A stretch of 64,000 bases of DNA. Source: Liolophura sinensis. Lineage: Eukaryota. The notes under the pieces are model-generated. The model saw only the letters and a program-made list of their open reading frames with translations, ran no database searches and had not been told where the DNA came from. Made by a program: the position numbers and the translations under genes. Every line of letters begins with the position of its first letter. The stretch's first letter is position 1. Positions 1,185 to 52,917 of this stretch are shown here, one piece after another. The stretch is taken from contig NC_088300.1 in the NCBI RefSeq assembly GCF_032854445.1, positions 60,598,969 to 60,662,968 on the forward strand, in the 5' to 3' direction.

Positions 1185-3479
1185 GTGGGTTTTAGCTTTT
1201 AATGTGCATGGAATGGACCAAAGCATAATCAAGCACAGTTTAATATTAGCCAGTTCTCACAATAGGATTTGATTTGTTATCACATTGACTGCAGGGTTGT
1301 GTGCAACCAAAAGGAACAATTCAGTCTGGCAGAAGAAAGATATAAGAATACTTTTTGATTAAGTCATTATTTCTATTTTAGTAGTACTATAAATGTTGTT
1401 TTTTTTTTTGTTTTTTTTTGTATTTTTTTTTTTTTTGAAGTGGCTGTAACAGTTGTAAATGAATGCAGAATATTTGAACAAGCATTGTACCATTTAAATA
1501 ATCATCTAAGAATATGTTTTTCTCAACAGTATTGTGACATTTCTACATTGTTAATTTTTCTTACATGTTACAGTAGTTCATACTATGTTGGACCAAGATT
1601 TAAATATTATATGTTTGATGTTATGTGACTGACCCTTTAAAAAGGCCCTGACTGAAATTCTTTTTTCGTGTTTTTACAGATGCCAAATTATTTGATTATT
1701 TTTTTATTTCATTCAATTTTTTTTTTTTTTCGTCCTTTGTTTGAAATGTCACTCTGCTTATACAGGTGAAGGTGCTATTTAGAGATATACATTTTCCTTA
1801 GTACAAAAATCTAGTCTAAGGATGGCTTATATTTACTGATACGCGAAGACTTCTGCCATTTTTTGCACCCGATTATGACATTGTATCTGTATTCACCTAC
1901 CCTATGGGCAAAGCTCCATGCATACGCAATAATAAATATCCAAATTCACATAATACAAGATCTGTCTGCAAGGTAAGGCATTTATTCAGCTTTTGCAACC
2001 ATTGACACTGAACTTTATTTGAGATTTCCTCGGAATTCTCAGTCCAATTCGAAAATAAGGTCTGCTTTGAGCCACTCGCTGCGTGATGTCATCTACCTGA
2101 TTTGACCTAAAGTGGTATGTCAATCACGCTGACGTCTATTGAGAATCTGACTTCGTGGAAAAATATATCACAACATTATTTAAGTATTCCAACGTATAGA
2201 ACAGCTCAGCTCACAAAGGTGGACATCGATGTTGTGAAGTGACAGACGCTTTTAGAATGACAAGAAATTGACGCTATGACTGCGAGGTCTTTTCTTTTCG
2301 TACCCCTTAAATGTCAACCACTTGTGCATGTGCTGAGCATGAAAACAATAGCTGCATGTTTGTGAGTAGGGCTCAGAAAGTGAAATATTATGAAATTACC
2401 ACGCGTATATGCAATGCAGTGAGATAAAACTTGTCCAAAAGACCACAAAGGCATGGAAAGATACCATATTAGGGAGATCCCAAAATTTAAAAAAGGTTAG
2501 TCAGGTGTGTGTATATTTTCTCCCTGTCAAAACTGTCAAAAGGGAGCATGTAGCTGGGAATTAATTTTGTGAACTGTCATTGAGATCACCACTGTCAGAT
2601 GCTTTGGTTGCTAGAAACTGTATCTGTTTACTGATACATTGTTGTGAAATGGAAACAATGGTTGTGACAATAGAAAAGGCATACCTGTGCATTTCTGAGT
2701 TGATGCAGGAAAGTTCACATACTAAGGCAAAGCTAATGTTCAATCCGTTAATCTTCATTAGGTAAAGCTGATGATCTGAGCTCTTTTGGGTTCTTAAACT
2801 CTTCATACTTTTAGACAAGCATGTACATTGAATGATGTTGTAAAGACAGAATAAATGTTTGATCCTTCACATGAAGGAAAAATTCCCTAAATCTCCCAAA
2901 GTTTATTTAAAATTAGGAAAATGGAAACAGATTTGTCAGTATACATTTTATTTTACTAAGCGATGAGGTTCCGCTTCACTCTGTCAAAAGCATCAGCTGG
3001 ACAGGACTTTGGTTATATTTTCTCATGCTCTCACCCCATCTGTACAGGACCTGAAAATGCTAGCACAAACTGTTGGCTTAAATTATGCAGTAGTACTCAT
3101 AAAAATGTTTACCTAGTTTTATTGTAAAAATCTAAGAATATTTATTCTGAGAATTGCCAAATGTTGGGTGATATATTTTAGTACTGTGTTCTGATCATTG
3201 TTAATTAAGTTTAATTGTGATCAGTTATTTGAACAGGATTCTACGATTGTTCTTCCCTTCTGCGAAAAAAAAAAAACACACCTAACCTTCCCTCTTTTGT
3301 TATAAAGGGCTTGTAACATCAAACAAACAATATTTTAATTTTGGCCTTATTAATTTAAGAATACCTATAAAGGTTTCTTCATAGGGTACAATATAGAGTG
3401 AAGAAAGTGAAGTTATGCCATACAGGTACATGTTTGGTGTTATGGTCCATTTAATACACTAACTTTTTTTGTTTTTCAG

Positions 3480-4901
3480 GAAGGTATATTGACATGAATG
3501 CAGATGGCCAGGTGAAAGACCAGTGTGTAGAATTATTGAGACAGCTAAAAACTGAGAAGCTGGATGTTTGCTTAGGTAAGGATCAGCTAATAAAGCATGA
3601 GGTGAGATGGAGACCTGAAGGGGTGATCCCTGAGGACGAGGAACATGCATTGTACCTGGCCACTCTTAGAGAGGTGTTCATTAACAAGATGAAGGATATG
3701 ATCATAGCCTCACTTTCACAGCAGAGGTCAAAAGGTCATGAACTTTATAATGAGGTTCTCCACCATGCTCATTTCTGTAAACGGAAAGGCGAGGATTTTC
3801 AAGGGAGGGAGCAACTCATCAAAGACTTGCAGACGGCCTTCCAGGAAATTTGGGAGACAGAAGATCCAGCAAAAACTGAAGGGAAAGGAAAGGCCAAGAA
3901 GGAAAGTGGCAGAAATCTTGCACGAGAAGAAGATAGTGACATTGGTAGCGATGTTGATGGAGTGCAGGAAGATTCAGAAATGTCTGAATTAGAGCGCCAG
4001 GAAGTGATCAGAGAACAATACGTTGCCATGAAAGATCCGCTGAAACAGTGGGGCATAAGCTTCAGTATGGAAGAGTACAGCGATCTCAGCGACCCAAATA
4101 AAGACGTCAAAGCGGAGTCCCTGAGGACTGTGAGAGAGTCTGTCCACACTAAGCCACTGGTGGTGTATGGAGAGTCAGGATGTGGGAAAACAGCCCTTAT
4201 GGCCAAGCTTGCTGAGGTGATCAAGAAAGAGACACCAGAGTCGGTTGTGTTGGTCAGGTTCCTGGGCACCTCTCCTCAGAGCTCCTCCATCCGTGACACG
4301 CTGGTCAGCATCTGTCACCAGATCCACAAGATCTTCGACCTTGAACCACTCAAGTTTGACCTTCAAGATAACTTCCCGTTTTTGGTGCAGTATTTCTCAG
4401 CTTTGTTGTGGAGGATCAAGTCAGTCTCGAAACCTCTTTACATCCTTCTCGACTCGCTGGATCAGCTTCAGCCCTCTGATCATGCATTTTCATTGAACTG
4501 GTTGCCCACACAGCTGCCTGACAACGTCCATATTGTATTATCCACTTTACCAGAAATGCATGGATTGATGACCACCCTGAAAAATCACCTAATGGAAGAC
4601 AAGCTGTTTTTTGAAGTGTTGCCCTTGCCGATGACAGATGCTAGCGACCTGCTGTTAAAAGTTTGGTCCAGATCAGTGGGTCGACAATTCACACAGCAAC
4701 AACGACAGCTCTTGAAAGACAAAGTATCCTCTGGAGCTGCACCATTGTATCTGAAACTTCTGTTTTATCAGGCCGTGAAATGGCACTCTTATACAGACGT
4801 GGTTGATGTTGACTTGGGATTGACAGCTCAGGCTGCAATCAACAAGCTTTTTGATGACTTAGAGATTCTGCATGGGAAAACACTGATAAGTCATTCCTTT
4901 G
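3480..4901 (+). CDS. NWD1: NWD1-like large exon encoding the NACHT P-loop NTPase domain (Walker A VVYGESGCGKTALMAKLA)
   Basis: A 1.4 kb open frame matches the 3494..5089 ORF track. The P-loop GESGCGKT and the downstream LVRFLGTSPQSS...SICHQI stretch align with human NWD1 LFGPPGIGKTALMCKLAE...LRLLGTSQMSS...SICFQV. Acceptor tttttcag, donor gtgagt at 4902. Confidence 0.85.
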
Positions 4902-4994
4902 GTGAGTACAACTCTACAGCATGTGTAAACTGTGATGTTATATTAAATATGGCTACTTTAGACACAGCCTTAACACTGAAAGAAGGTCTCTGTG

Positions 4995-5255
4995 GCCAAG
5001 TGTTTAGCATGCTAGTGCAGCATAATGGCCCAGAAGCCTCTCACAGTGACTCTGAGTTCAAGCCCAGCTCAAGCTGGCTTCCTCTCTGATCGTATGTGGG
5101 AATGTCTGCAGCAATCTGCAGATGGCCATGGGTTTACCCCGGACTCTGTCCAGTTTCCTTTCACCATATTGCTTGCTGTCATTGTATAAGTTAAATATTC
5201 TTGAGTATGGCGTAAAACTTCAATCATACTGCTATAATGTCATGAACTCAAAGTC
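4995..5255 (+). mobile_element. SINE family A copy in the NWD1 intron immediately after the NACHT exon
   Basis: gagttcaagcccagctcaagctggcttcctctctgatcgtatgtgggaatg...ccatgggtttaccccggactctgtccagtttcctttcaccatattgcttgc...cttgagtatggcgtaaaacttcaatc. It explains the apparent extension of ORF 3494..5089 beyond the real donor at 4902. Confidence 0.85.
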
Positions 5256-5273
5256 GTTCATTCATTCACTCAG

Positions 5274-5983
5274 GCTACATCTCTGCTGCCAAGAATGGCC
5301 TGAGTAACCAGGAAATGGAGCACCTGTTGTCTCTTGATGATGAGGTATTACAGGACATCTACCTGTATCACCTGCCTCCTAACGAACATGTCATCACATT
5401 ACCTTCCCTGATCTGGAGGCGTGTCGTCTACGACTTAGGCGAATACCTTGTGGAAAGACGAGCGGACGGACGCTCCATAAAGGCTTGGTATCACAGGCAG
5501 TTTCAGCAAGTGGCAGAGGAGCGCTATTTGCAAGGCGAGGTGAAGGTCAAAGTTCACTCAGCTATGGTGGAATATTTCCTGGGGGTATGGAGTGAGAAGC
5601 CCAAACCTCTAGATCTGTACAAGATGAAAAAGCGATATTACCCCGATGCCCATCGTCAGGTTCCCGATCAGCCTCTGCTTCTGGGGTCATCCGTGTTTAA
5701 CCTGAGAAAACTGACAGAGCTACCCCATCATCTGGTCTACAGCCAAAAGCTGACAGAGTTCAGGGCCTTGGTTGGCTGTAATTTAGAGTGGTTGTACACG
5801 AAGTGCAAAGCTGTGGGGCTCTCTGAGACACTAGATGATCTACAGCTGGCTATTTCTGCAGGGAAGGAAATGAACAAGGTTGACAAGATAGGTGACATCA
5901 TAGCTGACCTCCAATTTGTGACTGACGTGCTTCTTCTAGGAAATGACAACATTAGGGAAAATCCAGTCAATGTAGGTGTGCAG
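5274..5983 (+). CDS. NWD1: NWD1-like exon (GYISAAKNGLSNQEMEHLLSLDDEVLQDIYLYH...)
   Basis: Strong match to human NWD1 GYIVSSRHGLSEAELKDVLSLDDEVLQDVY...HRQ..V.ERYL. Acceptor cactcag, donor gtgaga. It is in frame with the previous exon after the SINE-containing intron. Confidence 0.85.
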
Positions 5984-7318
5984 GTGAGAAAGTCCCCGTA
6001 TAAATAAAACCTCATTGATTTTGATATCTTCATGGATATGATCTACAATTTCAGTAATGATATACTTGGGTTTATTATTTTATTCTGTTTTGTACATGTT
6101 TTGTTTTAGTGTTTAACAGCTGATAGGAAACATTGCACCTGTAAAAGCAGAGAGGTTTTGGGGTGGAACAAATCAGAGTAAACATTTACCACTTGTACCT
6201 CAAACTTACAATTTAAAGCTGTAGCCAAATCAGTAATTTTGATTGGAGCCTGCTACATGATTGGTCAGCGGCTGATCAGCTATGGCAAAGAAAAATGCAC
6301 TACACATGGTATTGTAAATGAATGATTCAGCATAAGAATGATGTGCGACTGAGTTGATCTGCTAATCAGATTAACGGTAACCTTAAAAACAAAGAGAATG
6401 ATTTTAAGGAAGAGGAATGTATGTCTAAACATGAAAAAAAACATTCTCTTTTGAGGCATATTTTGTATTTTTTAATAACCCACCCGTTTTTCTCATATTT
6501 TCTGTCCATGGGCAGGAATATTCAGAGATCGGAACACATTGGGAACAAGCGATTCTTAAGAAAACTGTAGTTTAAGGTTATTTGCATACCCCAAGAAGAA
6601 AGCCTAGAAGCTTTCTTGTACTGTTAATTGTAAGGCCACCTCGTATACTTCATATTAAGAAATAAAAACCAAGCTTTTCATGTATCACTGGGTCTTTTTT
6701 CATGTAAAACAAGGTTAATCTGTTGGGTGTGGGTGGCCTGAATATTGGTATGACATCATACTGAGCCAGAGTTTCCAGGTTTCATTACAGTAACACACCC
6801 AGATCCCACCATGTGGTTTGCATCCAGTCTTAACAGTATCAAAATAAATGTATTACATACACTGCACATACCCTAATTCCTCAACCTTTTCACATATGAA
6901 AGAGAATACATATTTTTAAATTGATTTTGGAGATAAAACTTTATTGGTTGGATTGGCCAGTTTCAGGGCTTAGCTAAATGTTGTAAAATTGTCAGTCAAA
7001 ACAGAATATAATGCCTTCAGAATATACATGTAGTTGAATAAACAGCTTTGAAACATGAGAAAAGGTTGAAGAATTATGGTATATATTAACCATGTCCGCG
7101 AATGTAAGTTTTATATGTAAGTTTTGTGTATATTTACTTCTGTGTTTTATAGCAAATGTATGCCAAACCTTATAAGATACATTTCTTCAGTATTCACAAC
7201 ATATTGCCTAATCCAGATTTAGCGATAAATTTGTCCTTGTTTTATTTTCTTAGTTGTCGTATATATTATTGGGCCATATTTAGTTTAACATGTACACATG
7301 CATGCATTCTCTTTCCAG

Positions 7319-7505
7319 ATCCTTGGCCAGCTAGGTACAGGTAGCCAGAAGTCCCCTGCCTTACAGACCTTGGTCAAAGAGGCCAGGGAGTGGTGCGGCT
7401 CCCACCCTCACCCTGTACTGGTGCCCCAACACCCCTGTCTGCCCTCACCAGGTGGCCACCTAAGACTGACCATCAATGCCTACTTGCAGACTCCAGGAGC
7501 TTTCC
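7319..7505 (+). CDS. NWD1: NWD1-like exon (ILGQLGTGSQKSPALQTLVKEAREWCGSHPHPVLVPQHP...GGHLRL)
   Basis: Matches human NWD1 QQAQSWFQLCAHPVLVPLGGFLQPPGGPLR. Acceptor ctttccag, donor gtaag at 7506. Confidence 0.8.
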
Positions 7506-8794
7506 GTAAGAAACACCATGCTTATAATAACTTGTGGATGAGATTGTTCTGTTAGCCAGATTTCTGAGCAGAGTGTAACGTAAAATTATTTGACTGCCTG
7601 TAAGCAAAAAGTTGTTGATTATCTGATGTGTTATGATCATTGCGGAGATCTTGATGGTACTAGTTACAGGTTCAGCCTAGTATTTTCGCTAATGCTATAA
7701 ACAGTTGGTTTATGTACATGTATATCCTGATGTACACAGAATATGTTATTGTAATAAACAGAGGGCAGGTAAGGATAAGGGAGGTGGGATGTTGAGGTGT
7801 AGAATAGACCAGAATTAGTCTGGGGGTAGGGGATGGAATTAAATACAAATACTGTTACAGTTATAAACTGAAATATTTAGCTCATTATAACTGGACAATT
7901 TATAATTATATAATTTTGTTTCGGAAATAATTTTCCTGCTACGGCGATGTAGCAGCAGTTTTATAGTCAATGAGGTGGTCAAGGTTATTATTTTCTCTAA
8001 AATTTTTTAACATCGTCCACCTTATTGATTACAAAACTGACGCTCGACACCCATAGTAGGAAACAATATTTCAATTCTGTAACCCTCCCCAAAATGTTGA
8101 ATGCAGGTATTCTCATAATTAAATAGGAAAAACTACAGTCATGTAAATACTTTCACACCCATTCGACGTAGCATTGGAAGATCCCATATTCTAAATTGTG
8201 CACAACGTGCAACGTCACCAGGCAAAACCATTGCTTCTAGACAAAAGGGGTACCAGTCTATATAGTCACTGATTTCAGTTCTGACGAGTATCAAACTGAT
8301 GGCAAATGCAGCTGTTGAAAATAATCTGTGAAGTGTCTTAAACGGTGAAACATTCGTTGGTGCCAGTCTACTTGTACTCTTCAACACTGACACGTTTCTT
8401 ACATGAAATGAACACTGCTGCCAAGTGTTCACATATCTTCTGCAGCACACTGGTTAATACCTGGTATGTGATACTTATCCATTCACTTTTCTCAGTGAAA
8501 ACAACATCCCATTTGAAAAATGGGAAAAAAAATTTGTCCGTTTTATTTATGACGAGCGTTTAATATGTGACCCAATGGGAATAAAAACATGAGATTTATA
8601 GTCTTTGACCAGCTTCCTTATATGTAATACGAAAGCATTGAAGGTTATAGAATTGTAGATTTATTCTTTGTGCTTTTATAAAACTTTTATGATTTTTCTA
8701 GTATCGGGTAGGTGTAAAAACATCTTATGAATGGATGACTTACAGAGAATGGAGGACTTTCTTTCATGATATAAACATTGATGTTTTTGAGCAG

Positions 8795-8984
8795 GTAACT
8801 CATCAATTTTACGCACCTGTCTGGCTCTGCGTGAGGACACTAACAGCCTCCTGGTGGTGGAGATGGGTGGCAAGGTGCACAACTCTGACACCCTCAAAAC
8901 CTATGATCTGGAGGATGGGCAGTCTGTGGCCACAACAGTACTTAGCAACAGGATGTGTAACATCAGACTGATAGACTCAGACAG
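8795..8984 (+). CDS. NWD1: NWD1-like exon at the start of the WD40 region (...TCLALREDTNSLLVVEMGGKVHNSDTLKTYDLEDGQSVATTVLSNRMCNIRLIDSD)
   Basis: Phase-consistent with its neighbours. Acceptor gagcag, donor gttagt at 8985. The 3' end of the exon is the seed of the downstream tandem array. Confidence 0.7.
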
Positions 8985-10260
8985 GTTAGTGTATGCTTCT
9001 TGATGACAGGTGTGAAATGGGCAACTGAATGTGTAACATCAGACTGATTGACTCAGACAGGTTAGTTTGTGCTTCTTGATGGCAGGTGTGAAATGGGCAA
9101 CTGAATGTGTAACATCAGACTGATAGACTTAGACAGGTTAGTGTGTGCTTCTTGATGGCGACAGGTTAGTGTGTGCTTCTTGATCACAGGTGTGAAATGG
9201 GCAACTGAATGTGTAACATCATACTGATAGACTTAGACAGGTTAGTGTGTGCTTCTTGATGACAGGTGTGAAATGGGCAACTGAATGTGTAACATCAGAT
9301 TGATAGACAGGTTAGTGTGTGCTTCTTGATGATGGGTGTGAAATGGGCAACTGAATGTGTAACATCAGATTGATAGACAGGTTAGTGTGCGCTTCTTGAT
9401 GGCAGGTGTGAAATGGGCAACTGAATGTGTAACATCAGACTGATAAACTCAGACAGGTTAGTGTGTGCTTCTTGATGACAGGTGTGAAATGGGCAACTGA
9501 ATGTGTAACATCAGACTGATAGGCTCAGACAGGTTAGTGTGTGCTTCTTGATGACGGGTGTGAAATGGGCAACTGAATGTGTAACATCAGACTGATATAC
9601 TCAGACAGGTTAGTGTGTGCTTCTTGATGACAGGTGTGAAATGGGCAACTGAATGTGTAACATCAGACTGATAGACAGGTGAATATGTGCTTCTTGATGA
9701 TAGGTCTGAATTGAGCAACTTCAGACTGAAAGTCTCAGGTGGGTGTGTGCTTCTTGATGACAGGTGTGAAATGGGCAACTGAATGTGTAACATCAGACTG
9801 ATAGACAGGTGAATATGTGCTTCTTGATGATAGGCCTGAATTGAGCAACTTCAGACTGAAAGACTCAGGTGGGTGTGTGCTTGTTGATTACAGGTGTGAA
9901 ATGGGCAACTGAATGTGTAACATCAGACTGATAGACAGGTGAATATGTGCTTCTTGATGATAGGCCTGAATTGAGCAACTTCAGACTGAAAGACTCAGGT
10001 GGGTGTGTGCTTCTTGATGACAGGTGTGAAATGGGCAACTGAATGTGTAACATCAGACTGATAGACAGGTGAATATGTGCTTCTTGATGATAGGTCTGAA
10101 TTGAGCAGCTTCAGACTGAAAGACTCAGGTGGGTGTGTGCTTGTTGATTACAGGTGTGAAGTGAGCAACTTTAGACTGATAGACTCAGGTGAATGTGTGT
10201 TTATTGATGGCAACAGGATCTGTAACATCAGGCTAATAGACTCAGTGAGGCTGCATGTTC
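8955..10260 (+). repeat. Tandem array, unit about 77 bp, about 16 copies, with diverged double units of about 140 bp from 9640. The unit is the last 30-40 nt of NWD1 exon 6 plus the first 45 nt of the intron, including the gttagt donor.
   Basis: The unit gtgtaacatcagactgatagactcagacag|gttagtgtgtgcttcttgatgacaggtgtgaaatgggcaactgaat recurs directly downstream of the true exon end at 8984. Confidence 0.9.
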
Positions 10261-10395
10261 AGATCGAGCTCTAGCTTACAGCTTCAGCTAATGCTTTAAA
10301 TCGAGATGTTTGTCTGGTACCCAGAAATGTTGATGGGTTACCTCAAGCACCTGTGAATAAATAAATAAAGTAAATTTACTTTCTCACCTGTGCAG

Positions 10396-10553
10396 GTATA
10401 TTCACTTGGAGTGGACAGGTGACAGGGATGATTACAACCCCACCTGTTACCAACGCCTGATCTACACCAGCTCCACCACTCTCGTCCCTCTACCCAAAGA
10501 TATCAGCTGGCTGAGTCTGTCACCAAGTGGAACTACTTTTGCTTACGCTGTTG
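10396..10553 (+). CDS. NWD1: NWD1-like exon (RYIHLEWTGDRDDYNPTCYQRLIYTSSTTLVPLPKDISWLSLSPSGTTFAYAV)
   Basis: Acceptor ctgtgcag, donor gtaagat. The frame continues from the exon ending at 8984 across the repeat-filled intron. Confidence 0.7.
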
Positions 10554-10770
10554 GTAAGATATCTTCTCTTCGCCCTGACACATATTCTGTTCACACCTCA
10601 CAGATACATGCATTGTTTTGAGAGATGGATTAAAGGTGACATTTTTTGATAAAGTTGTTGTTGTTAGTAGGCATCTCCTGTTCTTGTATAAGATTGTTTA
10701 AATTACCTTTTGTTGTAACAATTACTACCGTTGAATTTGCTTTTATTTATTTCATTTTCATTGCTTTTAG

Positions 10771-11671
10771 GAAATAATGTTTTTGTGCGACGCGGTGATT
10801 CCATTCTAAAATCAAGAAGAGTAACAAAGGAAGTAAAATTAAGTCAAACTGATTCCGTAACACACTTGGTTATCTCCCCTGATGACAATTATCTCGTCAC
10901 AACAACACTAGAAAATAAACAGTTTGTCTGGGAACTGGAAACTAACAGCTGTCTCCATGAATTGGGAAGTGCAGAGAAAAGTTTTGCCGGCAGCAGCAAG
11001 GACCTGCACTGCGTTCACATCACCAAAAAGAACTGGTTGATCTGTCCCGGGCTGAATTACAATACAAGGAACCAGATTTATGTGACAAATATAGAAACTG
11101 GGGAAAAAGTGTGTGAATTAAAGGGAGCAAGCAGCCATTACAGTATCGAGTTAATACGTATAAATCCTAGAGAAAATATCGTCCTTCTGGCAACTCGTGA
11201 CGACTGTGTGATCAACGGCATTGAGGATAAGTGGGGGATGCTGTGGAACCTGGAATCTGGAACGTTGTTGTCACAGTGCTCTGCTGTCAATGGCCCTTAC
11301 ACTGAGGTCAAACTGGTCGAGGATGGTGACGATATGTTTGTTATCTTGTGTGAAAAGCGCAGCCCTGTCATCAATATCCTGTGGGCTGGATCGGAGTCGG
11401 ATCCGTTAGAGACGGCGGTTTTGGTCCATGTTCTGGTAGCCCACAATGATTCTATCATACAGCTGGTCCTGAACGAGGACATACTGGTGTCAGCTTCACA
11501 AGACAACACTGTGAAGGTGTGGGACTTCAGAGAGATCAGGGCGGAGCTTCAGAGCCGGGTGCAAACAGCGGAATCACCAGAGGAAGCCAAGTTTTGCCCA
11601 TCCTTAGAGGAAGGAAAGCTACCAGTGCCGGGTAGGGATCAGATCAAAACCACAGCCATGGTAGTCTGCGA
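10771..11671 (+). CDS. NWD1: NWD1-like WD40-repeat exon (about 300 aa, ...NTVKVWDF...)
   Basis: Long open frame matching the 10731..11675 ORF track. Acceptor cttttag, gtaagt donor at 11672. The exon ends in phase 2 and continues in frame into the exon at 12970. Confidence 0.7.
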
Positions 11672-12969
11672 GTAAGTAATCTAAGGAGAATCACGATTGA
11701 TTGCAGGAATGATTTAAATAGTTATGTTTGATTTAGGTTTTATCTGATACTATTACATAATGCATTAGTCACATGGTTACTCAGTGATAGGATACAGAAA
11801 TATATGGTGTCAGTAACCTTTACTATATATTTACATGTGTCCTGTCTCTTAGTAACCAAGTTATTAGTTTATTATAATATTTTTCGGGATAATATTACAT
11901 GTGTATACATGTACATTTGTGGTCAACATCAAATATTATACTAGCAAGCAATAACATGTCACCCAAAAATCGGTTTAGTCTCGCAATACAAAAGATGGCA
12001 TGGGATACCATTACTTCTGTGAGGAACTTAAATTTTTTTCTTTATAGTGTGGTAAAACAAGGATGGGAGGAATTGAGTCAGTTTCAAACCAGGTAGATTA
12101 ATAAAGGCCAGGTGCATTTTTCTGTGTGGAAGTTGCTAGTTTCATCGTGATTCTTTTAGACTTTCATTGTTGTGGTGTTGTACACAGTGCATGTAAATGT
12201 TATGTTATATTTCACTTAAAGGGAAAGACCTCTAAAAATCGAAGTAGGCATCACCAGGTGGACCGCTAAAAACTTATGCTCAAATATATTTACATTCATT
12301 TTTTTAGATTTTTGAGAAAAGAATTAAAGGGGCTCAATCATTTAACTTCTAAGGAGGGTTTTGTGGACCATACCATCAGAGGTTATGAACTCTGACATCA
12401 CAGGAAGTTTGTCCAACTCTAATCTTGACAATGAATGTTGGAATAACTCATTTTACCCATGAGTGAAAGATTACTGAAATAATGTTCCCAATAATTCCTT
12501 CATTCTGGTGAACATAAGAAAAAATGGTGATGTGACGTCAGAATTGCTGGATACCATCAGTGTGGCTCATAAAACCCACCATTGTTTTCAGATATTTGAA
12601 TGCCTTTCAACACTGTCAAAAAAATCTAAAAAATAAATGAAAGTATTTTTACACATAGTTTTCAATTGTCTTTATGAGGAACCTTACTTCATGTTTTAGC
12701 TTTCTTTTACTTTAGAGTTGACACCCTGGTGGTAACTGAGCCTGGGAATCTCAGACACTTCACCAATATCAAACCTATATCAAAATATAATCAGTATATT
12801 ATGTTCACTTGTGGCTTTAAGTCAGGAGGTGTCATAAACTCCTGGTGAAGTGTCATGGTTTCCCCGGTCTCTACCCAGTTTTCCCCACCCATAAATTTGA
12901 CTCTTATCGTGAATAAAATAAGCACCATATCAAAGACAGTAAATTGAGTACTCATTTTCACTCTTCCAG

Positions 12970-13151
12970 GAACCGAGCTGTGGTTGGCAGCAAGGATGGG
13001 TTCCTGATATTTTATGACCTGGTCACCTGCACACAGTTGGGTCACATCAGGCCATGCACAACTGAGATCATTGGTATACTGGTTACGAAGAACAAACAGC
13101 ATGTTGTGGCTGCATCTCCTAAGTCACTTTTCATACTGGAATCTAATGGAG
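12970..13151 (+). CDS. NWD1: NWD1-like WD40 exon (NRAVVGSKDGFLIFYDLVTCTQLGHIRPCTTEIIGILVTKNKQHVVAASPKSLFILESNG)
   Basis: Acceptor ctcttccag, donor gtaaac. Phase-consistent with its neighbours. Confidence 0.7.
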
Positions 13152-13304
13152 GTAAACATAGTGGGTACTGCCTAGATTTGCTAATGCATTCCCTAAAACT
13201 GCTAACCTTTGTATCAAAAAGTGTGCAGGGCTGAACATAAACTTCATACAAGTGGTATTGATGGATTCTTTGGGTAAATCTGAGACGAGTTAAAGGTATT
13301 CATA

Positions 13305-14595
13305 TGGGTGGGTCATATTCAGGTGGGTCTGAGGGATTGTTACAGCTCGGTCTGAGGGATTTGTACAAATGGGTCATTGCAGGGGTAGAAATGACGTCTG
13401 TCTACCTGTTGGCGACAGGCAATTTTTATCGGCGACAGGTCACAAAAAAACTCAGCTGTTGCAGCGACAGTTAGACACAAAAAGTTTTCAATCATGTTTA
13501 AGTCAATATCCATGCATGTCTGTGTTTCTGAAGTCTGTATATTTACTAGGCCTTTCCATAATCAGAATGTTGATGCAAAACTTCGTCATGTTCGGCCCAA
13601 ACAAGTGAACACTGTTAGGACGTCATCTAGTGGACAAGGCCTTCGTCAACGAACCTATCGCCTTTATGCTTTCAATTCCGAGACCAAACATACCTTCAAC
13701 ATTGAAGAACGCGCTTCGGTTATTACAGCAACAGCAAAATCAGATCTGCAAAAAGCCGTTTTTGTTACGTAAAATGCCTTTTGTAACACTTTTTCTTAAG
13801 GGTCCACAGCTATCCTGGAAGGAATAGTGTCTACAGGTGCCACTCAACCTGAACTAGAGAACAGTCAAAGGAGAGCAGCGAATCAATCAAAAGTTGAAGT
13901 GTCACCCATGACTCAGAAGTTTCTCAACATTGCATTTGCAGAAGATTAAATCAAATAAATAAATAACAAAATGTGAAATTAATATATATAGTCTCGGCCT
14001 CTTCCTAACGCCCAAAATTGTACAGCTCTAAGACCACATTGTTTACTTTTCTCGCTCGAGGACTATGCGTGGCATTGCAGGTGTAAAGGGGAACAACTCA
14101 AGACACACATAAATCTAAACGCACACGACAGAGTGGTTTTCCTCGGTCGTTTCCCTTGAATGGGAAGCGCATGCATACGCAAGCACAGACTGAACTGTCG
14201 GAAGTAAGTTTCAATTTAATTGATCGACTGTGCAGAAGTCCCAATCATGACAGAATATTGAATAAAAAGGAAAATGGTACTGAAACCAAATATTCTTGTA
14301 ACACAGTAGACTGATATTGCTTTGCCAAGGTGACGGTGTTGACAGAAAATTTTATGTTCACAAAAATGTGACAATGGCGACTTTCTAAAAGTAACACTGA
14401 TGGGGACAGGTGACTGGTAGAAAAAAAATCTACCGGTTTCTGTGACAGGCGGTTTTAAAAAAACACCTCTTGGTCTGAGGAATTTGTACAGCTGGGTCAG
14501 AGGGATTTTGTACATCTGGGTCAGAGGGATTTGTACCGCTTTGTCCGAGGGATTTGTACCGCTTGCTCTCAGGGATTTGTACCGCTTGGGGTGAA
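13305..14595. mobile_element. Putative transposable element or composite repeat in an NWD1 intron, with a CpG-rich unique core flanked by related end blocks
   Basis: Shared blocks (gg)tctgagggatttgtacag repeated 2-4 times plus a gacaggtSac motif at 13310-13445 and 14400-14590. The core 13450-14400 is unusually CpG-rich for this window and carries unassigned ORFs 13494..13772 and 13630..13827. Confidence 0.35.
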
Positions 14596-14737
14596 AGATA
14601 CATATAGGCATAATTACTGTACATGTACTCTGATTAGAAAATGTGCCGGTTGTAAATATACCGGTTCAGTGAAATGTAGTTATGTCAAAAATACCAGAGA
14701 CTTGTGTCTGTATCTGTGAAAAGATTTCAGGGTCAAA

Positions 14738-14900
14738 ATGGGGCCTCCTTAGCTCAGTTGGTTTACACGCTAGCGCAGCGTAATGACCCAGGAGCCTCTC
14801 ACCAATGCAGTCGCTGTGAGTTCAAGTCCAGCTCATGCAGGCTTCCTCTCCGGCCGTGTGTGGGAAGGTTTGTCCATAAGCTAGCACAAATGTCAGTTTT
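14738..14900 (+). mobile_element. tRNA-derived SINE, family A, copy with intact tRNA-like head (ggggcctccttagctcagttggtt...gagttcaagtccagctc)
   Basis: Box A-like TAGCTCAGTTGG and box B-like GAGTTCAAGTCC. The body ctcatgcaggcttcctctccggccgtgtgtgggaaggt is shared with more than 12 other copies. Confidence 0.8.
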
Positions 14901-14951
14901 GTGGTAAACTGTCCACACGTGTGCTTATACCTGAATCACATCTTTCTTACA

Positions 14952-15074
14952 GATACTATTATCAGGGAAATCACTGCCCCAAAGAAAATCAACTGTTTAT
15001 CAGAGGCAAGTGACATCATAGTGGCTGGTCATGGAGGGATGGAAGCATATGGTTATGCCTGGAATCTACACACA
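14952..15074 (+). CDS. NWD1: NWD1-like exon (DTIIREITAPKKINCLSEASDIIVAGHGGMEAYGYAWNLHT)
   Basis: Acceptor ttcttacag, donor gtgtgt. Phase-consistent. Confidence 0.65.
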
Positions 15075-15639
15075 GGTGTGTCTGCAAGCAGTTCATAAAG
15101 GAATCCAAGCTTATATTTAGGAGCAAATCTGTTCAGCTAGCATTTACAACATGCTAATGACACTTCCGATATAAGAATATAAGATCTCACTAGCATGGCA
15201 CTAACTCACAACTACATGTAGCATACACAGGCTTCCAGGTTTCCTGGACCATTTCACTGATCTGCTAATGTAGAGTTGCTTCACTAGTTTGCTGATATCG
15301 TCATCATTTGCATTGTTTGTTGTTGTTTATTTTTTTTTTTTAGATAAAAATATTACTGCCCAGTCAGGGTACTTGAAATGTGTGTGTAAGTGTTTTCAGC
15401 AGGTTAATGTATTAGGACTACGTGTACAACATTATCATTTATATCCAGTCTTTGGGATTCGTATCACAATAACATACATCTGTTTGCTTTGCACACTGGT
15501 TCTACGACTGTCAAGTCCCTCACATATTCTCATATTTTAATATGTATTTTTTTTCTTACTGTTATGTAGATCTTCACTTCTTAGAACTTGCTGATTTTAT
15601 TGTTTTTCTAAAATGGTACATCATGTTTTTGGATTTCAG

Positions 15640-15710
15640 GTGAATTGCTTGCCAAGTTTCAAGGACTGTATGGTTTTCACTGGATAGCCATTAATTCCAA
15701 AGGAACTCAT
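15640..15710 (+). CDS. NWD1: NWD1-like exon (GELLAKFQGLYGFHWIAINSKGTH)
   Basis: Acceptor ggatttcag, donor gtatgt. Phase-consistent. Confidence 0.65.
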
Positions 15711-16149
15711 GTATGTATATCTTCTAACTACCTCTTATTTCAGTGGTTGGAAACCTGTGGCCATACACATAAGTATTTCAGTGTGTCAACATATACCTTT
15801 ACAAATTACTGTCACCAAGACAGTAATATTTATGCATGTGGTCTTAACTTTAAAGGTTAAGCAAAACCTGTCAGAGTCTTGCGTGTGTATATATTTTTCT
15901 TCTGCTATGAATTTCACTAAACATATCTGGGTTTTCACAGATTACACCAAGAACTTTGTTTTCCATATTCTTGATGTCCTGGAAAAGTTACCTTCAGAAA
16001 TAATGTGACAAAACATAGGGTATGGGCCTGGTCATTATTCATGATGTAAAGTCTGTTCTTTTCTGTTTTATCTCATTGTAATTTTAGTGAAGCCACCTCA
16101 TGAGTCAGGGATTCCCTCTCCCTCAATGAGGCCTTGGTGACAGTAAGTG

Positions 16150-16300
16150 GTCGTTTTTGCTGGTTTGGCAGCTTGCAAAATCATGAAGAGTTACTTGACC
16201 AGCGTCTGTATATCATAAGGGAAAGTTCGTTAGTAGCTTGCCAAGGGTCAGTGGTTTACCCTGGGCTCTCCCCACCAAACTAACCACCATTGTAGCAGTG
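16150..16300 (+). mobile_element. SINE family A-related variant copy
   Basis: gggtcagtggtttaccctgggctctccccaccaaactaaccaccattgtagcagtgaaaacttcttgagtgtggcattaaacaacaatc. Confidence 0.55.
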
Positions 16301-16431
16301 AAAACTTCTTGAGTGTGGCATTAAACAACAATCAGTCGAACCATACCTGTGTATACTACAAGGTTTGATGTTGAAAAAACAAATCAGATATTTCAAACTC
16401 TCCAGTATTTTTAATATCTTTCACTTTTCAG

Positions 16432-17121
16432 CTTGGAGGTTCATTCTTTGAGTATCCAGTCCTCTATTCAGTGGAGTCAGGTGATATCCTGACAGCCCTG
16501 GACAAGGCTGATGTGATGATGTCATCACAGTCCTTCCTGGTGTTTAGCCCAGATGACCGCTACCTCGCTGGCGGATCCACTGACGGGAGCGTCCGGGTTA
16601 TTGATGGCCAAAAGGGAAAATACCTCTGCCGCTTTCAGCAACTCTCCTCAGCCATACAGGGCTGTTTTTCACCAGACAGCAATATTTTGGTCACGACCGG
16701 TTTCCGCACGTTGTTCTTGTGGTCAATGGAACAAGGTACTTTGTTATGGTCACTTTCTCGGCACCACGACTTTGTGGTCAAGCTGAAGTTTTGTCTGGAT
16801 GGACGGTATCTGGTGACCTCCTCCAAAGACAAGAGAATTGTGGTTTGGGATTGGAAGCATTTATACTCAGTCTGTGATCACATGGCTCACTGTCCAATAG
16901 ATGTCATGGATGTGGCAGACGATCTGACATCGGTTATCTATGCTCCCGATAGCGTCAGTTATGTAGCTATTCTCAAACCTAACCCGTACATGACCCAAAA
17001 GTTGAATGGTCAGATACAGCACACTCTGGCATCTCGTTTCCATGACGCCCAAGCTGTGGCCCTCTCATTCTCCAGTCAGGGCCTGACAAGGGAGACAACT
17101 AGGGCTTGTATTCTCCTGTAA
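16432..17121 (+). CDS. NWD1: NWD1-like terminal coding exon, WD40 repeats and stop (…TRACILL*)
   Basis: A 230-codon open frame matches the 16471..17121 ORF track, with WD40 motifs such as LVTSSKDKRIVVWDW. The C-terminus ACILL* resembles the human NWD1 C-terminus SQVCLIV. AATAAA at 17211-17216 lies about 90 nt downstream. Confidence 0.75.
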   Translation, partial: LGGSFFEYPVLYSVESGDILTALDKADVMMSSQSFLVFSPDDRYLAGGSTDGSVRVIDGQKGKYLCRFQQLSSAIQGCFSPDSNILVTTGFRTLFLWSMEQGTLLWSLSRHHDFVVKLKFCLDGRYLVTSSKDKRIVVWDWKHLYSVCDHMAHCPIDVMDVADDLTSVIYAPDSVSYVAILKPNPYMTQKLNGQIQHTLASRFHDAQAVALSFSSQGLTRETTRACILL

Positions 17122-23159: not shown

Positions 23160-23240
23160 CTCAATGCAAGATAATTCTCTGCATTTCTCCACTTCCAGAT
23201 CATTCATTTCTTTTCTGTAGGAGAGTTCAGATGATCTCGT
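23160..23240 (-). CDS. MVP: MVP exon 23 (TRSSELSYRKEMNDLEVEKCRELSCIE)
   Basis: Matches human [26 protein letters not shown]. Acceptor tttaag, donor gtgagg. Confidence 0.75.
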
Positions 23241-23289
23241 CTTAAACAGAATGAAAAAAATAATGAACAAGCATTTGGGGAGTACACTG

Positions 23290-23770
23290 AAACAGATGGG
23301 CTAAAAATGAGCTACAACTGAGCCAGTTGGACAACAGCTGAGCCGCAACTGAGCCAGCTGGACAACTGAGCCACAACTGAGCCAGTTGGACAACAACTGA
23401 GCTGCAACTGAGCCAGCTGGACAACTGAGCCACAACTGAGCCAAATGGACATCAACTGAAGCCAGTCGGACAACAGCTGAGCCAGCTGGACAACAACTGA
23501 TCCAGTTTGACAACAGCTGAGCCGCAACTGAACCAGCTGGACAACTGAGCCACAACTGAGCCAGTTGGACAACAACTGAGCCAATTGGACATCAACTGAA
23601 GCCAGTTGGACAACAGCTGAGCCAGTTGGACAACAACTAAGCCAGCTGGACAGTAACTGAGCCAGATGGACAACAAGTTTCAATTACAAAGCTAGCTGGA
23701 CAACATCTGAGTCAGTTTGACAACAACTAAGCTGGCTGGACAACAACTGGGCCACAACTGAGCCAGTTGT
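23290..23770. repeat. Minisatellite of about 20 bp, CTGAGCCAGYTGGACAACAA-like, in MVP intron 22
   Basis: Degenerate tandem periodicity. The minus-strand ORFs 23242..23683 are repeat artefacts. Confidence 0.85.
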
Positions 23771-23923
23771 ACAACAACTGCATATATTAATGACATTACC
23801 ACTGACAACTGAAAACATGAGAAAGAAATTGTAAACAGCTATGATTTATATGCATTCAATGTGGAAACTGTTCAACAAAATTAAGAGATTTCACACTGAG
23901 AAGAACGTGTACAGAGGTGTGCT

Positions 23924-24140
23924 GACAAACAACTGAGCACTCACCAGATCTTGTATGCTTACAAACAACTGAGCACTCACCAGATCTTGTATGTTTACAA
24001 ACAACTGAGCACTCACCAGATCTTGTATGCTTACAAACAACTGAGCACTCACCAGATCTTGTATGCTTACAAACAACTGAGCACTCACCAGATCTTGTAT
24101 GCTTACAAACAACTGAGCACTCACCAGATCTTGTATTTCC
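23924..24140 (-). repeat. Tandem array of six 36-bp units duplicating the MVP exon 22 donor junction (ATACAAGATCTG|gtgagtgctcagttgtttgtaagc)
   Basis: Perfect or near-perfect 36-nt periodicity, contiguous with the real donor at 24125. The minus-strand frame stays open through the array, as in ORF 23891..24205. Confidence 0.9.
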
Positions 24141-24189
24141 AGCTGTGAATAGTGCTGAATTTCCTCAGCCTGTGCCTTCAGTTTGGCAG
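24125..24189 (-). CDS. MVP: MVP exon 22 (AAKLKAQAEEIQHYSQLEIQDL)
   Basis: Matches human QAKLKAQALAIETEAEL. The donor gtgagt is followed by six tandem in-frame copies of the junction. Confidence 0.8.
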
Positions 24190-24399
24190 CTGTAACAGAA
24201 GACACAAATTATTATAATTATTTTTTTTGGCAATTGTTTTTTTACCTTCCTGATTTTCTGATATTTTTCTCTACATTCTCTAATAATAAATGCTAAAAAT
24301 CACTTTTGATATGCCATCATGGAGCTTCTATTTTGTCAGTAATTTGGCTATTAGTTTTTAAAGGTATAGGATTTAACAAGGGGGCGTTTTCATCCCACT

Positions 24400-25579: not shown

Positions 25580-25680
25580 TTAGTTGCGATCTCAATGGCC
25601 ATCTGAACAGACTTCATCAAACTGTCTCTCATCTTGAGGTCTACTGGTTCTATACTCTGGATGTCAATACTTGTGACCAC
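25580..25680 (-). CDS. MVP: MVP exon 20 ([33 protein letters not shown])
   Basis: Matches human [34 protein letters not shown]. The acceptor side abuts a junction-derived tandem array. Confidence 0.9.
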
Positions 25681-26310
25681 CTGGTAACAGAATACCATGG
25701 ATTTTAATACATGTGACCAACTGATAACAGAATAGTTCTGGATATCAATACTTGTGACCAAATGATAATAGATTACTCTGGAATTCAATACATGTGATCA
25801 ACTGATAACAGAATAGTTCTGGATATCAATACTTGTGAAACCCTGGTAACAGATTACTCTGGATGTCAATACATGTGACCAACTGATAACAGAATAGTTC
25901 TGGACATCAATACTTGTGACCAAATGATAATAGATTACTCTGGAATTCAATACATGTGATCAACTGATAACAGAATAGTTCTGGATATCAATACTTGTGA
26001 CCACCTGGTAACAGATTACTCTGGATGTCAATACATGTGACCAACTGATAACAGAATAGTTCTGGACATCAATACTTGTGACCAAATGATAACAGATTAC
26101 TCTGGATGTCAATACATGTGACCAACTGATAACAGAATAGTTCTGGACATCAATACTTGTGACCAAATGATAATAGATTACTCTGGATTTCAATACATGT
26201 GATCAACTGATTACAGAATAGTTCTGGATATCAATACTTGTGACCAAATGATAACAGATTACTCTGGATTTCTATACTTGAGATCAACTGATAAAAGAAT
26301 ACTGTGGATG
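25681..26310 (-). repeat. Tandem array, about 40-bp units in an 80-bp higher-order repeat, about 15 copies. It duplicates the first 29 nt of MVP exon 20 plus the acceptor ttaccag.
   Basis: Units such as attactctggatgtcaatacatgtgaccaa|ctgataacag recur upstream, in the gene sense, of the real acceptor at 25680/25681. Confidence 0.85.
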
Positions 26311-26603
26311 TCGATGCTTGTGTGATGGCCTGGTAAAAAAAATAGGTATCATTACTGTCATTACTCTGGATGTCAATACTTGTGACCAACCGATAACAGA
26401 ATACTTCTGGATATCAATATTTGTAACCACCTGACAAGAGAATACTTCTGGGTATTAATACTTGTCAGCATATGACAACAAAATACTTCTGGATATCAAT
26501 TCTTGTGACATAACAAATGATAAGAGAACACTCCATATAACATTACATGTACATACACGTATTACTGGCACTTACTGGCAAGCCCCATCAGACTTCAACC
26601 TAC

Positions 26604-32184: not shown

Positions 32185-35178
32185 TAACAAGGACCTCATC
32201 ACTAACATACATGTACATCTATCTCTCATCAATGATGTTAAGCTCAATAGGGGGAATATATTCACAAGGACCTCATCACTAACATACATGTACATCTATC
32301 TCTCATCAATGATGTTAATCTCAATAGGGGGAATATATTCACAAGGACCTCATTACTTACATACATGTACATCTATCTCTCATCAATGATGTTAATCTCA
32401 ATAGGGGGAATATATTCACAAGGACCTCATCACTAACATACATGTACATCTATCTCTCATCAATGATGTTAAGCTCAATAGGGGGAATATATTCACAAGG
32501 ACCTCATCAATTACATACATGTACATCTATCTCTCATCAATGATGTTCAGCTCAAAGAGGGGAATATATTCACAAGGACCTCATCAATTACATACATGTA
32601 CATCTATCTCTCATCAATGATGTTAAGCTCAATAGGGGAATATATTCACAAGGACCTCATCATTAACATACATGTACATCTATCTCTCATCAATGATGTT
32701 AATCTCAATAGGGGGAATATATTCACAAGGACCTCATCACTAACATACACGTACATCTATCTCTCATCAATGATGTTAAGCTCAATAGGGGGAATATATT
32801 CACAAGGACCTCATCAATTACATACATGTACATCTATCTCTCATCAATGATGTTAAGCTCAATAGGGGGAATATATTCACAAGGACCTCATCAATTACAT
32901 ACATGTACATCTATCTCTCATCAATGATGTTAATCTCAATAGGGGGAATATATTCACAAGGACCTCATTACTTACATACATGTGCATCTATCGCTCATCA
33001 ATGATGTTAAGCTCAATAGGGGAATATATTCACAAGGACCTCATCACTAACATACATGTACATCTATCTCTCATCAATGATGTTAAACTCAATAAGGGGA
33101 GTATATTCACAAGGACCTCATCAATTACATACATGTACATCTATCTCCCATCAATGATGTTAAGCTCAATAGGGGGAATATATTCACAAGGACCTCATCA
33201 CTTACATACATGTACATCTATCTCTCATCAATGATGTTAATCTCAATAGGGGGAATATATTCACAAGGACCTCATAACTTACATACATGTGCATCTATCT
33301 CTCATCAATGATGTTAAGCTCAATAGGGGGAATATATTCACAAGGACCTCATTACTTACATACATGTACATCTATCTCTCATCAATGATGTTAAGCTCAA
33401 TAGGGGAATATATTCACAAGGACCTCATCACTAACATACACGTACATCTATCTCTTATCAATGATGTTAAGCTCCATAAGAGGAATATATTCACAAGGAC
33501 CTCATCACTTACATACATGTACATCTATCTCTCATCAATGATGTTAAGCTCAATAGGGGGAATATATTCACAAGGACCTCATCACTAACATACATGTGCA
33601 TCTATCTCTCACCAATGATGTTAAGCTCCATAAGAGGAATATATTCACAAGGACCTCATCAGTAACATACATGTACATCTATCTCTCATCAATGATGTTA
33701 ATCTCAACAGGGGGAATATATTCACAAGGACCTTATCAGTAACACACACGTACATCTATCTCTCATCTCATCAATGATGTTAATCTCAATAGGGGGAATA
33801 TATTCACAAGGACCTCATCACTAACATACATGTACATCTATCTCTCATCAATGATGTTAAGCTCAAAGAGGGGAATATATTCACAAGGACCTCATCACTA
33901 ACATACATGTGCATCTATCTCTCCCCAATGATGTTAAGCTCAATAGGGGGAATATATTCACAAGGACCTCATCAATTACATACATGTACATCTATCTCTC
34001 ATCAATGATGTTAATCTCAATAGGGGGAATATATTCACAAGGACCTCATCACTTACATACATGTACATCTATCTCTTATCAATGATGTTAAGCTCAAAGA
34101 GGGGAATATATTCACAAGGACCTCATCAATTACATACATGTACATCTATCTCTCATCAATGATGTTAATCTCAATAGGGGGAATATATTCACAAGGACCT
34201 CATCACTAACATACATGTGCATCTATCTCTCACCAATGATGTTAAGCTCAATAGGGGGAATATATTCACAAGGACCTCATCAATTACATACATGTACATC
34301 TATCTCTCATCAATGATGTTAATCTCAATAGGGGGAATATATTCACAAGGACCTCATCACTAACATACATGTACATCTATCTCTTATCAATGATGTTAAG
34401 CTCAAAGAGGGGAATATATTCACAAGGACCTCATCACTAACATACATGTGCATCTATCTCTCACCAATGATGTTAAGCTCAATAGGGGGAATATATTCAC
34501 AAGGACCTCATCAATTACATACATGTACATCTATCTCTCATCAATGATGTTAATCTCAACAGGGGGAATATATTCACAAGGACCTCATCACTTACATACA
34601 TGTACATCTATCTCTCACCAATGATGTTAACCTCAATGGGGGAATATATTCACAAGGACCTCATCAATTACATACATGTACATCTATCTCTCACCAATGA
34701 TGTTAAGCTCAATAGGGAGAATATATTCACAAGGACCTCATCACTTACACACATGTGCATCTATCTCTCACCAATGATGTTAAGCTCAATAGGGGGAATA
34801 TATTCACAAGGACCTCATCAATTACATACATGTACATCTATCTCTCATCAATGATGTTAAGCTCAATAGGGAGAATATGTTCACAAGGACCTCATCACTT
34901 ACACATATGTGCATCTATCTCTCATCAATGATGTTAAGCTCAATAGGGGGAATATATTCACAAGGACCTCATCAATTACATACATGTACATCTATCTCTC
35001 ATCAATGATGTTAACCTCAATGAGGGGATATATTCACAAGGACCTCATCACTAACATACCGGGATACATGTATATACACAAGGACTTCATCATGAACATA
35101 CACTTTACCTCTGGTCAATGATGTTAACCTCAATAAGAGGATATATTCACAAGGACCTCATCACTAACATACATGTAC
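32185..35178 (-). repeat. 3 kb tandem array, 78-bp unit, about 39 copies. It duplicates the 3' 45 nt of MVP exon 11 plus the donor and the first 22 nt of the intron.
   Basis: Minus-strand unit gtccttgtgaatatattccccctattgagcttaacatcattgatgagag atagat gtacatgtatgtaattgatgag. It is contiguous with the true exon 11 donor at 35179. The plus-strand ORFs inside the array are periodic artefacts. Confidence 0.9.
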
Positions 35179-35248
35179 CTCTTGTCAATGATGTTAACCT
35201 CAATTGGGGGGATATATTCACAAGGACCTCTAATCATCCATCTGTCAC
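35179..35248 (-). CDS. MVP: MVP exon 11 (GDRWMIRGPCEYIPPIEVNIIDK)
   Basis: Matches human [25 protein letters not shown]. The donor gtacat abuts the 3 kb junction-derived tandem array. Confidence 0.8.
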
Positions 35249-46822: not shown

Positions 46823-47020
46823 ATGGCTGAAACACCCAGTGAGTTTAAGCTGAAAAACCCTCCAATGGATGGAGTGTCTGCTGTTAAATTTGGTCCTAAC
46901 TCCAGCCAGCACCTGCTGGTATCATCATGGGACTGCACTGTGCGGCTATATGATGTCATCAGTAACAATATGAGGTTGAGCTTCCCACAGCAAGCCCCAG
47001 TCCTCGATTGCTGTTTTCAT
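46823..47020 (+). CDS. BUB3: BUB3 coding exon 1 (MAETPSEFKLKNPPMDGVSAVKFGPNSSQHLLVSSWDCTVRLYDV...)
   Basis: Matches human BUB3 [64 protein letters not shown]. Donor gtatgt. Confidence 0.9.
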
Positions 47021-47500
47021 GTATGTACATGGGCTTGGTTGTTCAAAAGTGTATTAGATAATACTGATATTAAGTTATATTATATATTAATATATTAATT
47101 TAACAAAAACCCAGCTACCAAATGGAACAGTAGCAGACTTAGTTCATATTAATAAACTGTTCCACAATTATTTGAGCCAAGTGCAAAACTGAAGACTTCA
47201 AGTTAAATCTGCTATGAAGTCTCAAGACTGTTTTGAACAACCAGCTGGTTCATATTACAAAACATGAAAAAATGACTTAAAGTAAATAGTAACAAAGAAA
47301 ATATGCATTAAATACACATGTAGTCTCTTTGACAGTGGTTGTTCTGAACATATATTTGAAACTTGGCAGATCCAGTATGGTCATGCATATGCACGGTACA
47401 AAGGAAGACTTTGCTGGCTCAAAGCGAAGTCCTTATAGTATGGAAAGTTTCTCTGTTGTCTTATTAATTTCATTGTCTAACTTTCCTGACCATTTTTCAG

Positions 47501-52865: not shown

Positions 52866-52917
52866 ATTATAATACAGCATTATCTTATTTATTTTGTCTT
52901 TCTTTTTGTCCCCTCAG

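Follow-up and report, generated by a model that had tools for sequence, protein, structure and literature searches.

Which of several identical splice donors ends an exon when they follow one another at intervals of 36 nt, all in one open reading frame? The question is raised by a gene for the major vault protein (MVP) in the window, by which we mean the whole 64-kb stretch of DNA that was analysed. In this gene a tandem repeat runs across the donor junction of the 22nd coding exon, and every copy carries a strong potential 5' splice site. The repeat might generate protein isoforms of graded length, or it might be the neutral product of slippage. Slashes within sequences mark splice junctions throughout.

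The host gene

The gene lies on the minus strand, from approximately 43880 (ATG) to approximately 21095 in the tblastn layout, and 25 coding exons were counted in it. The tblastn with a human MVP sequence served as a lead only; the gene was confirmed from the window's own translation. Pfam matches to this translation comprise Vault (1.7e-48), Vault_2, Vault_3, Vault_4 and MVP_shoulder (6.5e-39), and phmmer against PDB chains returned human MVP with E = 9.5e-129 over residues 452-851. The assignment to MVP made in the sequence-only reading is thereby confirmed: this is an intact major vault protein gene, with collinear vault repeats, shoulder and cap-helix. The exon model combines homology with splice sites read by eye (14 exons), and two small exons missed by tblastn were placed at approximately 41049-40984 and 30448-30370. 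It is the 22nd of the 25 coding exons whose donor junction is repeated, the number under which it had already been described. The features around it are as follows.

24125..24189, minus strand: MVP coding exon 22, 65 nt, with the acceptor ...ttacag/CT in phase 1 and the end ...GAT CTG in phase 0
23241..24124, minus strand: intron 22, 884 nt from the first donor, ending ...ttctgtttaag/
23160..23240, minus strand: MVP coding exon 23 (TRSSELSYRKEMNDLEVEKCRELSCIE), starting in phase 0

Exon 22 encodes (A)AKLKAQAEEIQHYSQLEIQDL, which aligns without gaps to approximately residues 743-764 of human MVP. Splicing from the first donor gives a protein that reads ...AAKLKAQAEEIQHYSQLEIQDL/TRSSELSYRKEM... 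and aligns to human MVP from residue 660 to residue 851, again without gaps, with the junction at human 764/765. The cap-helix corresponds to rat residues 647-802 and forms a 42-turn helix, the lateral contacts of which dominate vault assembly (PMC3595041). The junction falls within this helix, in agreement with the earlier placement of the site near it.

A 36-nt minisatellite at the end of exon 22

23921..24136, minus strand: minisatellite of six 36-nt copies, from TRF and an exact-register scan

TRF reported a period of 36, 6.0 copies, 98% matches and 0% indels, with a score of 420, over 23920..24136 of the window. On the minus strand the unit reads ATACAAGATCTG/GTGAGTGCTCAGTTGTTTGTAAGC (the full 36-nt unit being ATACAAGATCTGGTGAGTGCTCAGTTGTTTGTAAGC), and the exact-register scan placed its copies on that strand at 24136-24101, 24100-24065, 24064-24029, 24028-23993, 23992-23957 and 23956-23921. 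They lie head to tail in exact phase, with two mismatches in 216 nt. Copies 1, 2, 3 and 5 are identical; copy 4 carries G>A at unit position 35 (...GTAAAC) and copy 6 carries A>C at unit position 33 (...GTCAGC). With at most three mismatches allowed, the unit occurs six times in the window and 0 times in 100 dinucleotide-preserving shuffles, and none was found in the rest of the 64-kb window outside the array. The array is located at the extreme 5' end of intron 22: copy 1 opens with the final 12 nt of exon 22, and with splicing from the first donor everything after them in the array is intronic.

Much of what had been read from the letters alone stood up to re-alignment. The 36-nt periodicity held (6.0 copies, no indels), and the junction was correctly given as ...CAG CTG GAA ATA CAA GAT CTG/gtgagt. 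Reading of the ORF bore out a unit of 12 codons with the frame open through all copies, and the 104-aa minus-strand ORF at 23891..24205, with the periodic peptide DLVSAQLFVSIQ, was found as claimed. Two points needed amendment. The exon end had been described as followed by six repeats; the tandem 36-nt copies are real, but there are six in total, including the authentic copy at the exon end. The span 23924..24189 that had been assigned to the repeat is exon 22 plus the array, minus 3 nt, the array itself occupying 23921..24136.

Assemblies are prone to errors in tandem repeats, and the repeat might be over-expanded or chimeric through an assembly or sequencing error. However, the two substitutions confined to single copies and the clean, single-copy flanks are what a real minisatellite typically shows. 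Many arrays built of different units also occur in the window, and a comparable junction array is present in a related genome. An artefact is, on this evidence, barely credible.

Six identical splice donors

24123..24124, minus strand: authentic (upstream-most) 5' splice site GT, CTG/GTGAGT, from conserved intron position and collinearity with human MVP
23943..24088, minus strand: five pseudo-donors, with the G of GT at 24088, 24052, 24016, 23980 and 23944

The authentic donor has the G of its GT at 24124, and the array contains this donor and five pseudo-donors rather than six pseudo-donors. All six agree at every position from -12 to at least +20, and sequence strength alone is therefore unable to discriminate among them. 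CTG/GTGAGT agrees with MAG/GTRAGT at 8 of 9 positions and ties for best among the 14 donors read in the gene. The difference among the six sites is one of context, the first donor being the only one that abuts the purine-rich exon body. Masking of the pseudo-sites by RNA structure was considered and rejected as an explanation: no special structure was found in the array region, the MFE of which does not differ from that of shuffles (z = -1.2).

Since exon 23 starts in phase 0 and 36 nt make 12 codons, any of the six donors would join exon 23 in frame. Splicing at donor k would lengthen the protein by 12(k-1) residues of (VSAQLFVSIQDL)n; with one authentic donor and five pseudo-donors, the insert could reach 60 aa at most, rather than 72. 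The gene might on these grounds use several donors in the manner of human IFI6, either as noise or in a regulated fashion, and make MVP isoforms with 12, 24 and up to 60 extra residues in the cap-helix. Several features of the array are in keeping with such use: the pseudo-donors are strong and identical to the authentic one, the stop-free 12-codon unit gives in-frame products with no premature stop, and the insert unit is free of Pro and Gly. There is precedent too, in that human IFI6 makes three mRNAs and CBS uses two pseudo-sites, by the accounts given in PMC1557585 and PMC4526556. No same-species protein that would reveal donor use was found in a collection of 5.8 billion proteins, where identity to the exon 20-23 peptide was at best 65% along its full length and 85% within a single exon (best identity per exon 65-85%). 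An exact metagenome scan with a 30-nt junction sequence gave 0 matches.

Comparison with homologues

The alignment of homologues comprised 36 database sequences of at least 200 aa. Approximately 30 of these, a diverse set, cover the junction site, and none has an indel there. Three orthologous loci (L001-L003) were also taken from large ENA contigs; at 55-65% identity in exon 22 they are distant, and test ancient conservation only rather than the state in sister species. All three contain the same 22-codon exon (a 65/66-nt exon) with a phase-0 end and a single donor, the junctions being QKN/gtaagt, QNM/gtgagt and QNM/gtaagt. Downstream of the orthologous exon 22 donor no repeat was found in any of the three. 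Inspection of orthologous MVP genes for the array had been suggested in the sequence-only reading, and it has gone against ancient conservation, with the array absent from 3/3 related genomes.

Only the first donor reproduces both the conserved intron position and the canonical length of the cap-helix. The single donor at the same position in L001-L003, without a repeat, argues that the first copy of the array is the ancestral, authentic junction and that the array itself is not ancient. In L002 (13057-13221) and L003 (13567-13728) the orthologues of exons 23 and 24 are contiguous, without an intron between them. Intron positions in the C-terminal part of MVP therefore vary between lineages; the position of the exon 22 donor is conserved.

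The relatives also bear on a role for the array in splicing itself. The extra 5' sites might have been selected to recruit U1 snRNP and SRSF1, aiding exon definition or protecting the intron from premature cleavage, without themselves serving as splice donors. Exon 22 is very short, at 65 nt, and where an internal exon is short, the 5' splice site that follows it acts like an exonic enhancer and stimulates the recruitment of U2AF/U2 (PMC8724738). In F7, moreover, exon skipping increased as the first usable pseudo-site was placed farther from the authentic position, showing that nearby sites matter to exon definition (PMC1557585). Yet one donor is enough to define this 65/66-nt exon in the relatives, the near-identity of the copies speaks for recent expansion rather than long-term maintenance, and the pseudo-sites in the gene's other junction arrays have decayed. 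We consider a selected array of U1-binding sites very unlikely.

The open frame and the would-be insert

Of the six frames of the periodic 36-nt unit, four are open. Among 36-nt windows of the MVP gene, 47% are open in a fixed frame, and multiplication by approximately 1/3 for a period divisible by 3 gives a chance of approximately 0.16 that a unit is both in frame and free of stops. Selection for the open frame was rejected on these two counts, and the in-frame, stop-free unit appears to be a coincidence. The composition of the insert unit, VSAQLFVSIQDL, is that of translated intron and unlike that of the cap-helix: 8% of its residues are charged and 50% hydrophobic, compared with 36% and 24% in the cap-helix, and 0 of 143 cap-helix 12-mers resemble it. 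Nothing suggests that the repeat unit has evolved as coding sequence.

Both the composition of the insert and a chance of approximately 0.16 for the open frame weigh against the use of several donors. The length of the cap-helix is invariant in solved MVPs and in the approximately 30 homologues that cover the site, and its contacts are essential to vault assembly (PMC3595041). By simple geometry, a 12-residue insert in an ideal helix would turn the helix downstream of it by approximately 120 degrees. In F7, where the spacing is nearly equal (37 bp), no use of pseudo-sites was detected (PMC1557585). Isoforms made by choice among the six donors are, in our estimation, unlikely.

An open frame through all copies could also belong to a genuine coding repeat, in which the last donor (23944) is used and MVP carries a 60-residue (VSAQLFVSIQDL)x5 insertion. 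Some in vitro systems favour whichever 5' site has the least distance to the 3' splice site; Eperon et al. reportedly found in 1993 that duplicated strong 5' sites in vitro often led to the one nearest the 3' splice site being favoured. Here, however, it is the first donor that sits at the conserved intron position. A coding repeat fails on three further points, as the homologues (approximately 30 covering the site) have neither an indel nor an insertion at the site, the orthologous loci contain no repeat, and the composition is unlike that of the cap-helix. The near-identity of the copies, which extends to third codon positions, fits a non-coding minisatellite. A coding repeat of this kind is highly improbable.

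Origin of the array

We propose, with a probability of roughly 0.7, that a recent and neutral minisatellite spans the junction and that splicing proceeds from its first donor. The sequence-only reading had set an isoform generator and neutral slippage side by side; collinearity with human MVP, the conserved intron, the composition of the insert, the approximately 16% chance of an open frame and the example of F7 together favour slippage. The intron already contains a second repeat.

23308..23765, minus strand: older minisatellite in intron 22, with a ~20-nt unit TGTCCAACTGGCTCAGTTGT (sense orientation) and copies 70-86% alike

The ~20-nt unit and the intronic half of the 36-nt unit share GCTCAGTTG(T)TTGTC and match at 14 of 15 positions. 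Intron 22 contains all 16 of the GCTCAGTTGT sites in the 64-kb window; the 36-nt array accounts for six of them and the 20-nt array for 10, and this common motif suggests that the 36-nt unit grew out of the older ~20-nt repeat. The near-identity of the 36-nt copies (214/216 nt) indicates that their expansion was recent. Tandem repeats with a period of at least 10 make up 17.8% of the window and 21.7% of the MVP gene, so such arrays arise easily here.

Replication slippage or unequal exchange would have produced the array, within an intron already containing a GCTCAGTTGT-type minisatellite. In this slippage-prone intron a further period, of 36 nt, may have arisen that by chance took in the final 12 nt of the exon. 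The spliceosome would then take the upstream-most donor, next to the purine-rich exon body, as it does in human F7 IVS7, and the other five copies would be spliced out as intron and be selectively neutral. A downstream donor selected by mistake would give an in-frame product with 12n additional residues and no premature stop, rather than a frameshift. The copy number of the array is probably variable. We infer both the choice of donor and the polymorphism of the array. Against this reading count the strength and identity of the six donors, the in vitro preference for the site nearest the 3' splice site, the distance of the three relatives, and the mammalian source of the F7 evidence, the present genome being of an invertebrate-like lineage.

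Other minisatellites and neighbouring genes

Two further arrays in the same MVP gene span splice junctions.

32187..35230, minus strand: donor-junction minisatellite (array 1), 77-nt unit, ~37 copies, from TRF
25656..26506, minus strand: acceptor-junction minisatellite, ~41-nt unit, ~20 copies

The 77-nt array repeats ...GPCEYIPPIEINIIDER and the start of the intron. Its authentic copy reads AG/GTACAT and its second copy AG/GTAAAG; in the amplified copies a 6-nt insertion, ATAGAT, parts the AG from GTACAT and leaves GAT/GTACAT. The ~41-nt array repeats the last ~16 nt of an intron (..ctgttaccag) joined to ~25 nt from the start of coding exon 20 (GTGGTCACAAGTATTGAYATCCAGA), and several of its copies retain an intact ACCAG/GT. 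The periods of these two arrays, 77 and ~41, are not multiples of 3, so the gene's junction arrays show no tendency to be in frame. Of nine distinct arrays in the MVP gene (21095-43880), three span junctions, compared with 0.63 expected under random placement of the founding unit; the corresponding Poisson-binomial P(>=3) of 0.019 comes from a post hoc test on one gene.

A plus-strand gene at 3455-17118, convergent with MVP, is NWD1-like and encodes NACHT, HTH_NWD1 and WD40 regions. The best match to its NACHT ORF was a Logan protein with 84% identity, and the named matches were cnidarian only, at 33-38%. Inside it, a 76-nt array at 8945-9676 (plus strand) repeats the end of the ORF 8791-9000 (...NIRLIDSDR, GACAG/GTTAGT) together with the next ~36 nt, and is a candidate fourth donor-junction array. 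Neither Pfam nor the fetched homologues gave support for ORF 8791-9000 as an exon. The possibility that this NACHT/WD40 gene is TEP1, a vault partner, was rejected: the Pfam match is to HTH_NWD1, and matches to the TEP1 propeller are below the cut-off, so the gene is not evidence of a vault-partner cluster. A second plus-strand gene, at 46793-53074, contains WD40-repeat exons, the only Pfam matches being to WD40 and just below the curated cut-off. The N-terminus of this second gene may resemble BUB3.

In the relative L001, a 42-nt x 45 array at 10642-12566, built of polypyrimidine and CAG/GGCC units, overlaps the acceptor of the orthologous MVP exon 21 by ~4 nt; junction-associated minisatellites of this sort are therefore not confined to the window's species. 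Large minisatellites also occupy intergenic or 3'-flanking positions in the window, at 53221-53703 (41 nt x 12), 54869-55487 (41 nt x 15) and 57993-61416 (85 nt x 41).

Significance

If the 36-nt array is real in the living animal, it offers a natural test, in a non-mammalian genome, of how a choice is made among identical strong 5' splice sites. Wrong choices of donor stay in frame and introduce no premature stop, and they should therefore show in cDNA. Gene callers that work from ORFs or ab initio are liable to read through the array, as in the 104-aa ORF, or to choose a downstream donor, an error that would put spurious 12-residue repeats into MVP. The array is also a likely VNTR marker.

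A more far-reaching proposal combines two ideas, that a lineage bias seeds or preserves minisatellites on splice junctions and that the 36-nt array gives a ladder of isoforms in 12-residue steps with altered vault caps. The basis for a lineage bias would be the three of nine MVP arrays, the candidate in the NWD1-like gene and the further case in the relative's MVP gene. The isoform ladder, if true, would mean that 5'-to-3' "first-site" donor selection fails outside mammals. We regard the combination as distinctly improbable.

Comparison with known junction-spanning minisatellites

The closest parallel we consider is the VNTR of human F7 IVS7, which has a 37-bp unit in 5-9 copies, the first monomer spanning the exon 7/IVS7 boundary (Borensztajn et al. 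2006, PMC1557585). All of its pseudo-sites are functional and only the most upstream site is used; when sites were inactivated one by one, the next upstream site was activated (PMC1557585). The array in MVP has both structural features of this type, being a head-to-tail repeat with a unit of 10-100 bp and having the authentic boundary in its first monomer. Both arrays occupy the 5' end of their intron, with the exon-intron boundary inside the first monomer and identical pseudo-donors after the authentic donor. Unit length (37 and 36 nt) and copy number (5-9 and 6) are also close.

The two differ in other respects. The F7 repeat includes 4 exon nt whereas that of MVP includes 12, and the F7 donor is weak (UGG/gugggu) whereas the MVP donor is strong (CUG/GUGAGU). 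As the length of the F7 unit is not divisible by 3, most mis-splicing there causes a frameshift; the pseudo-donors of MVP are all in frame. Silent pseudo-sites and copy-number polymorphism, demonstrated in F7, are predictions for the MVP array. F7 is, moreover, a mammalian case, and the host genome of the MVP array is non-mammalian.

A second parallel, and the precedent for the idea of an isoform generator, is intron 2 of IFI6 (6-16/G1P3), likewise a junction-spanning minisatellite that gives multiple donors. As reported from Turri et al. 1995 in PMC1557585 and PMC4526556, it contains 25 pseudo-sites, and use of the authentic site and two of these yields three mRNAs. It is much longer than the MVP array, and its multiple-donor use is documented, whereas in MVP such use is hypothetical.

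CBS IVS13, LMNB2 and PDGF intron 4 also include the donor in the first monomer, according to the listing in PMC1557585. By the same listing, two pseudo-sites are used in CBS IVS13 and the authentic site only in LMNB2 and PDGF. These human genes differ from the MVP array in having longer units (81-100 bp) or more copies (10-20).

With exonic coding VNTRs the MVP array shares a period that is a multiple of 3, an open frame and a periodic predicted peptide. It differs in that each unit holds a consensus GT donor, the conserved intron position lies inside the first unit, and the peptide repeat is present in no orthologue; the units are, for these reasons, mostly intron and not exon. The layout indicates no new mechanism and belongs to a class already described in human genes.
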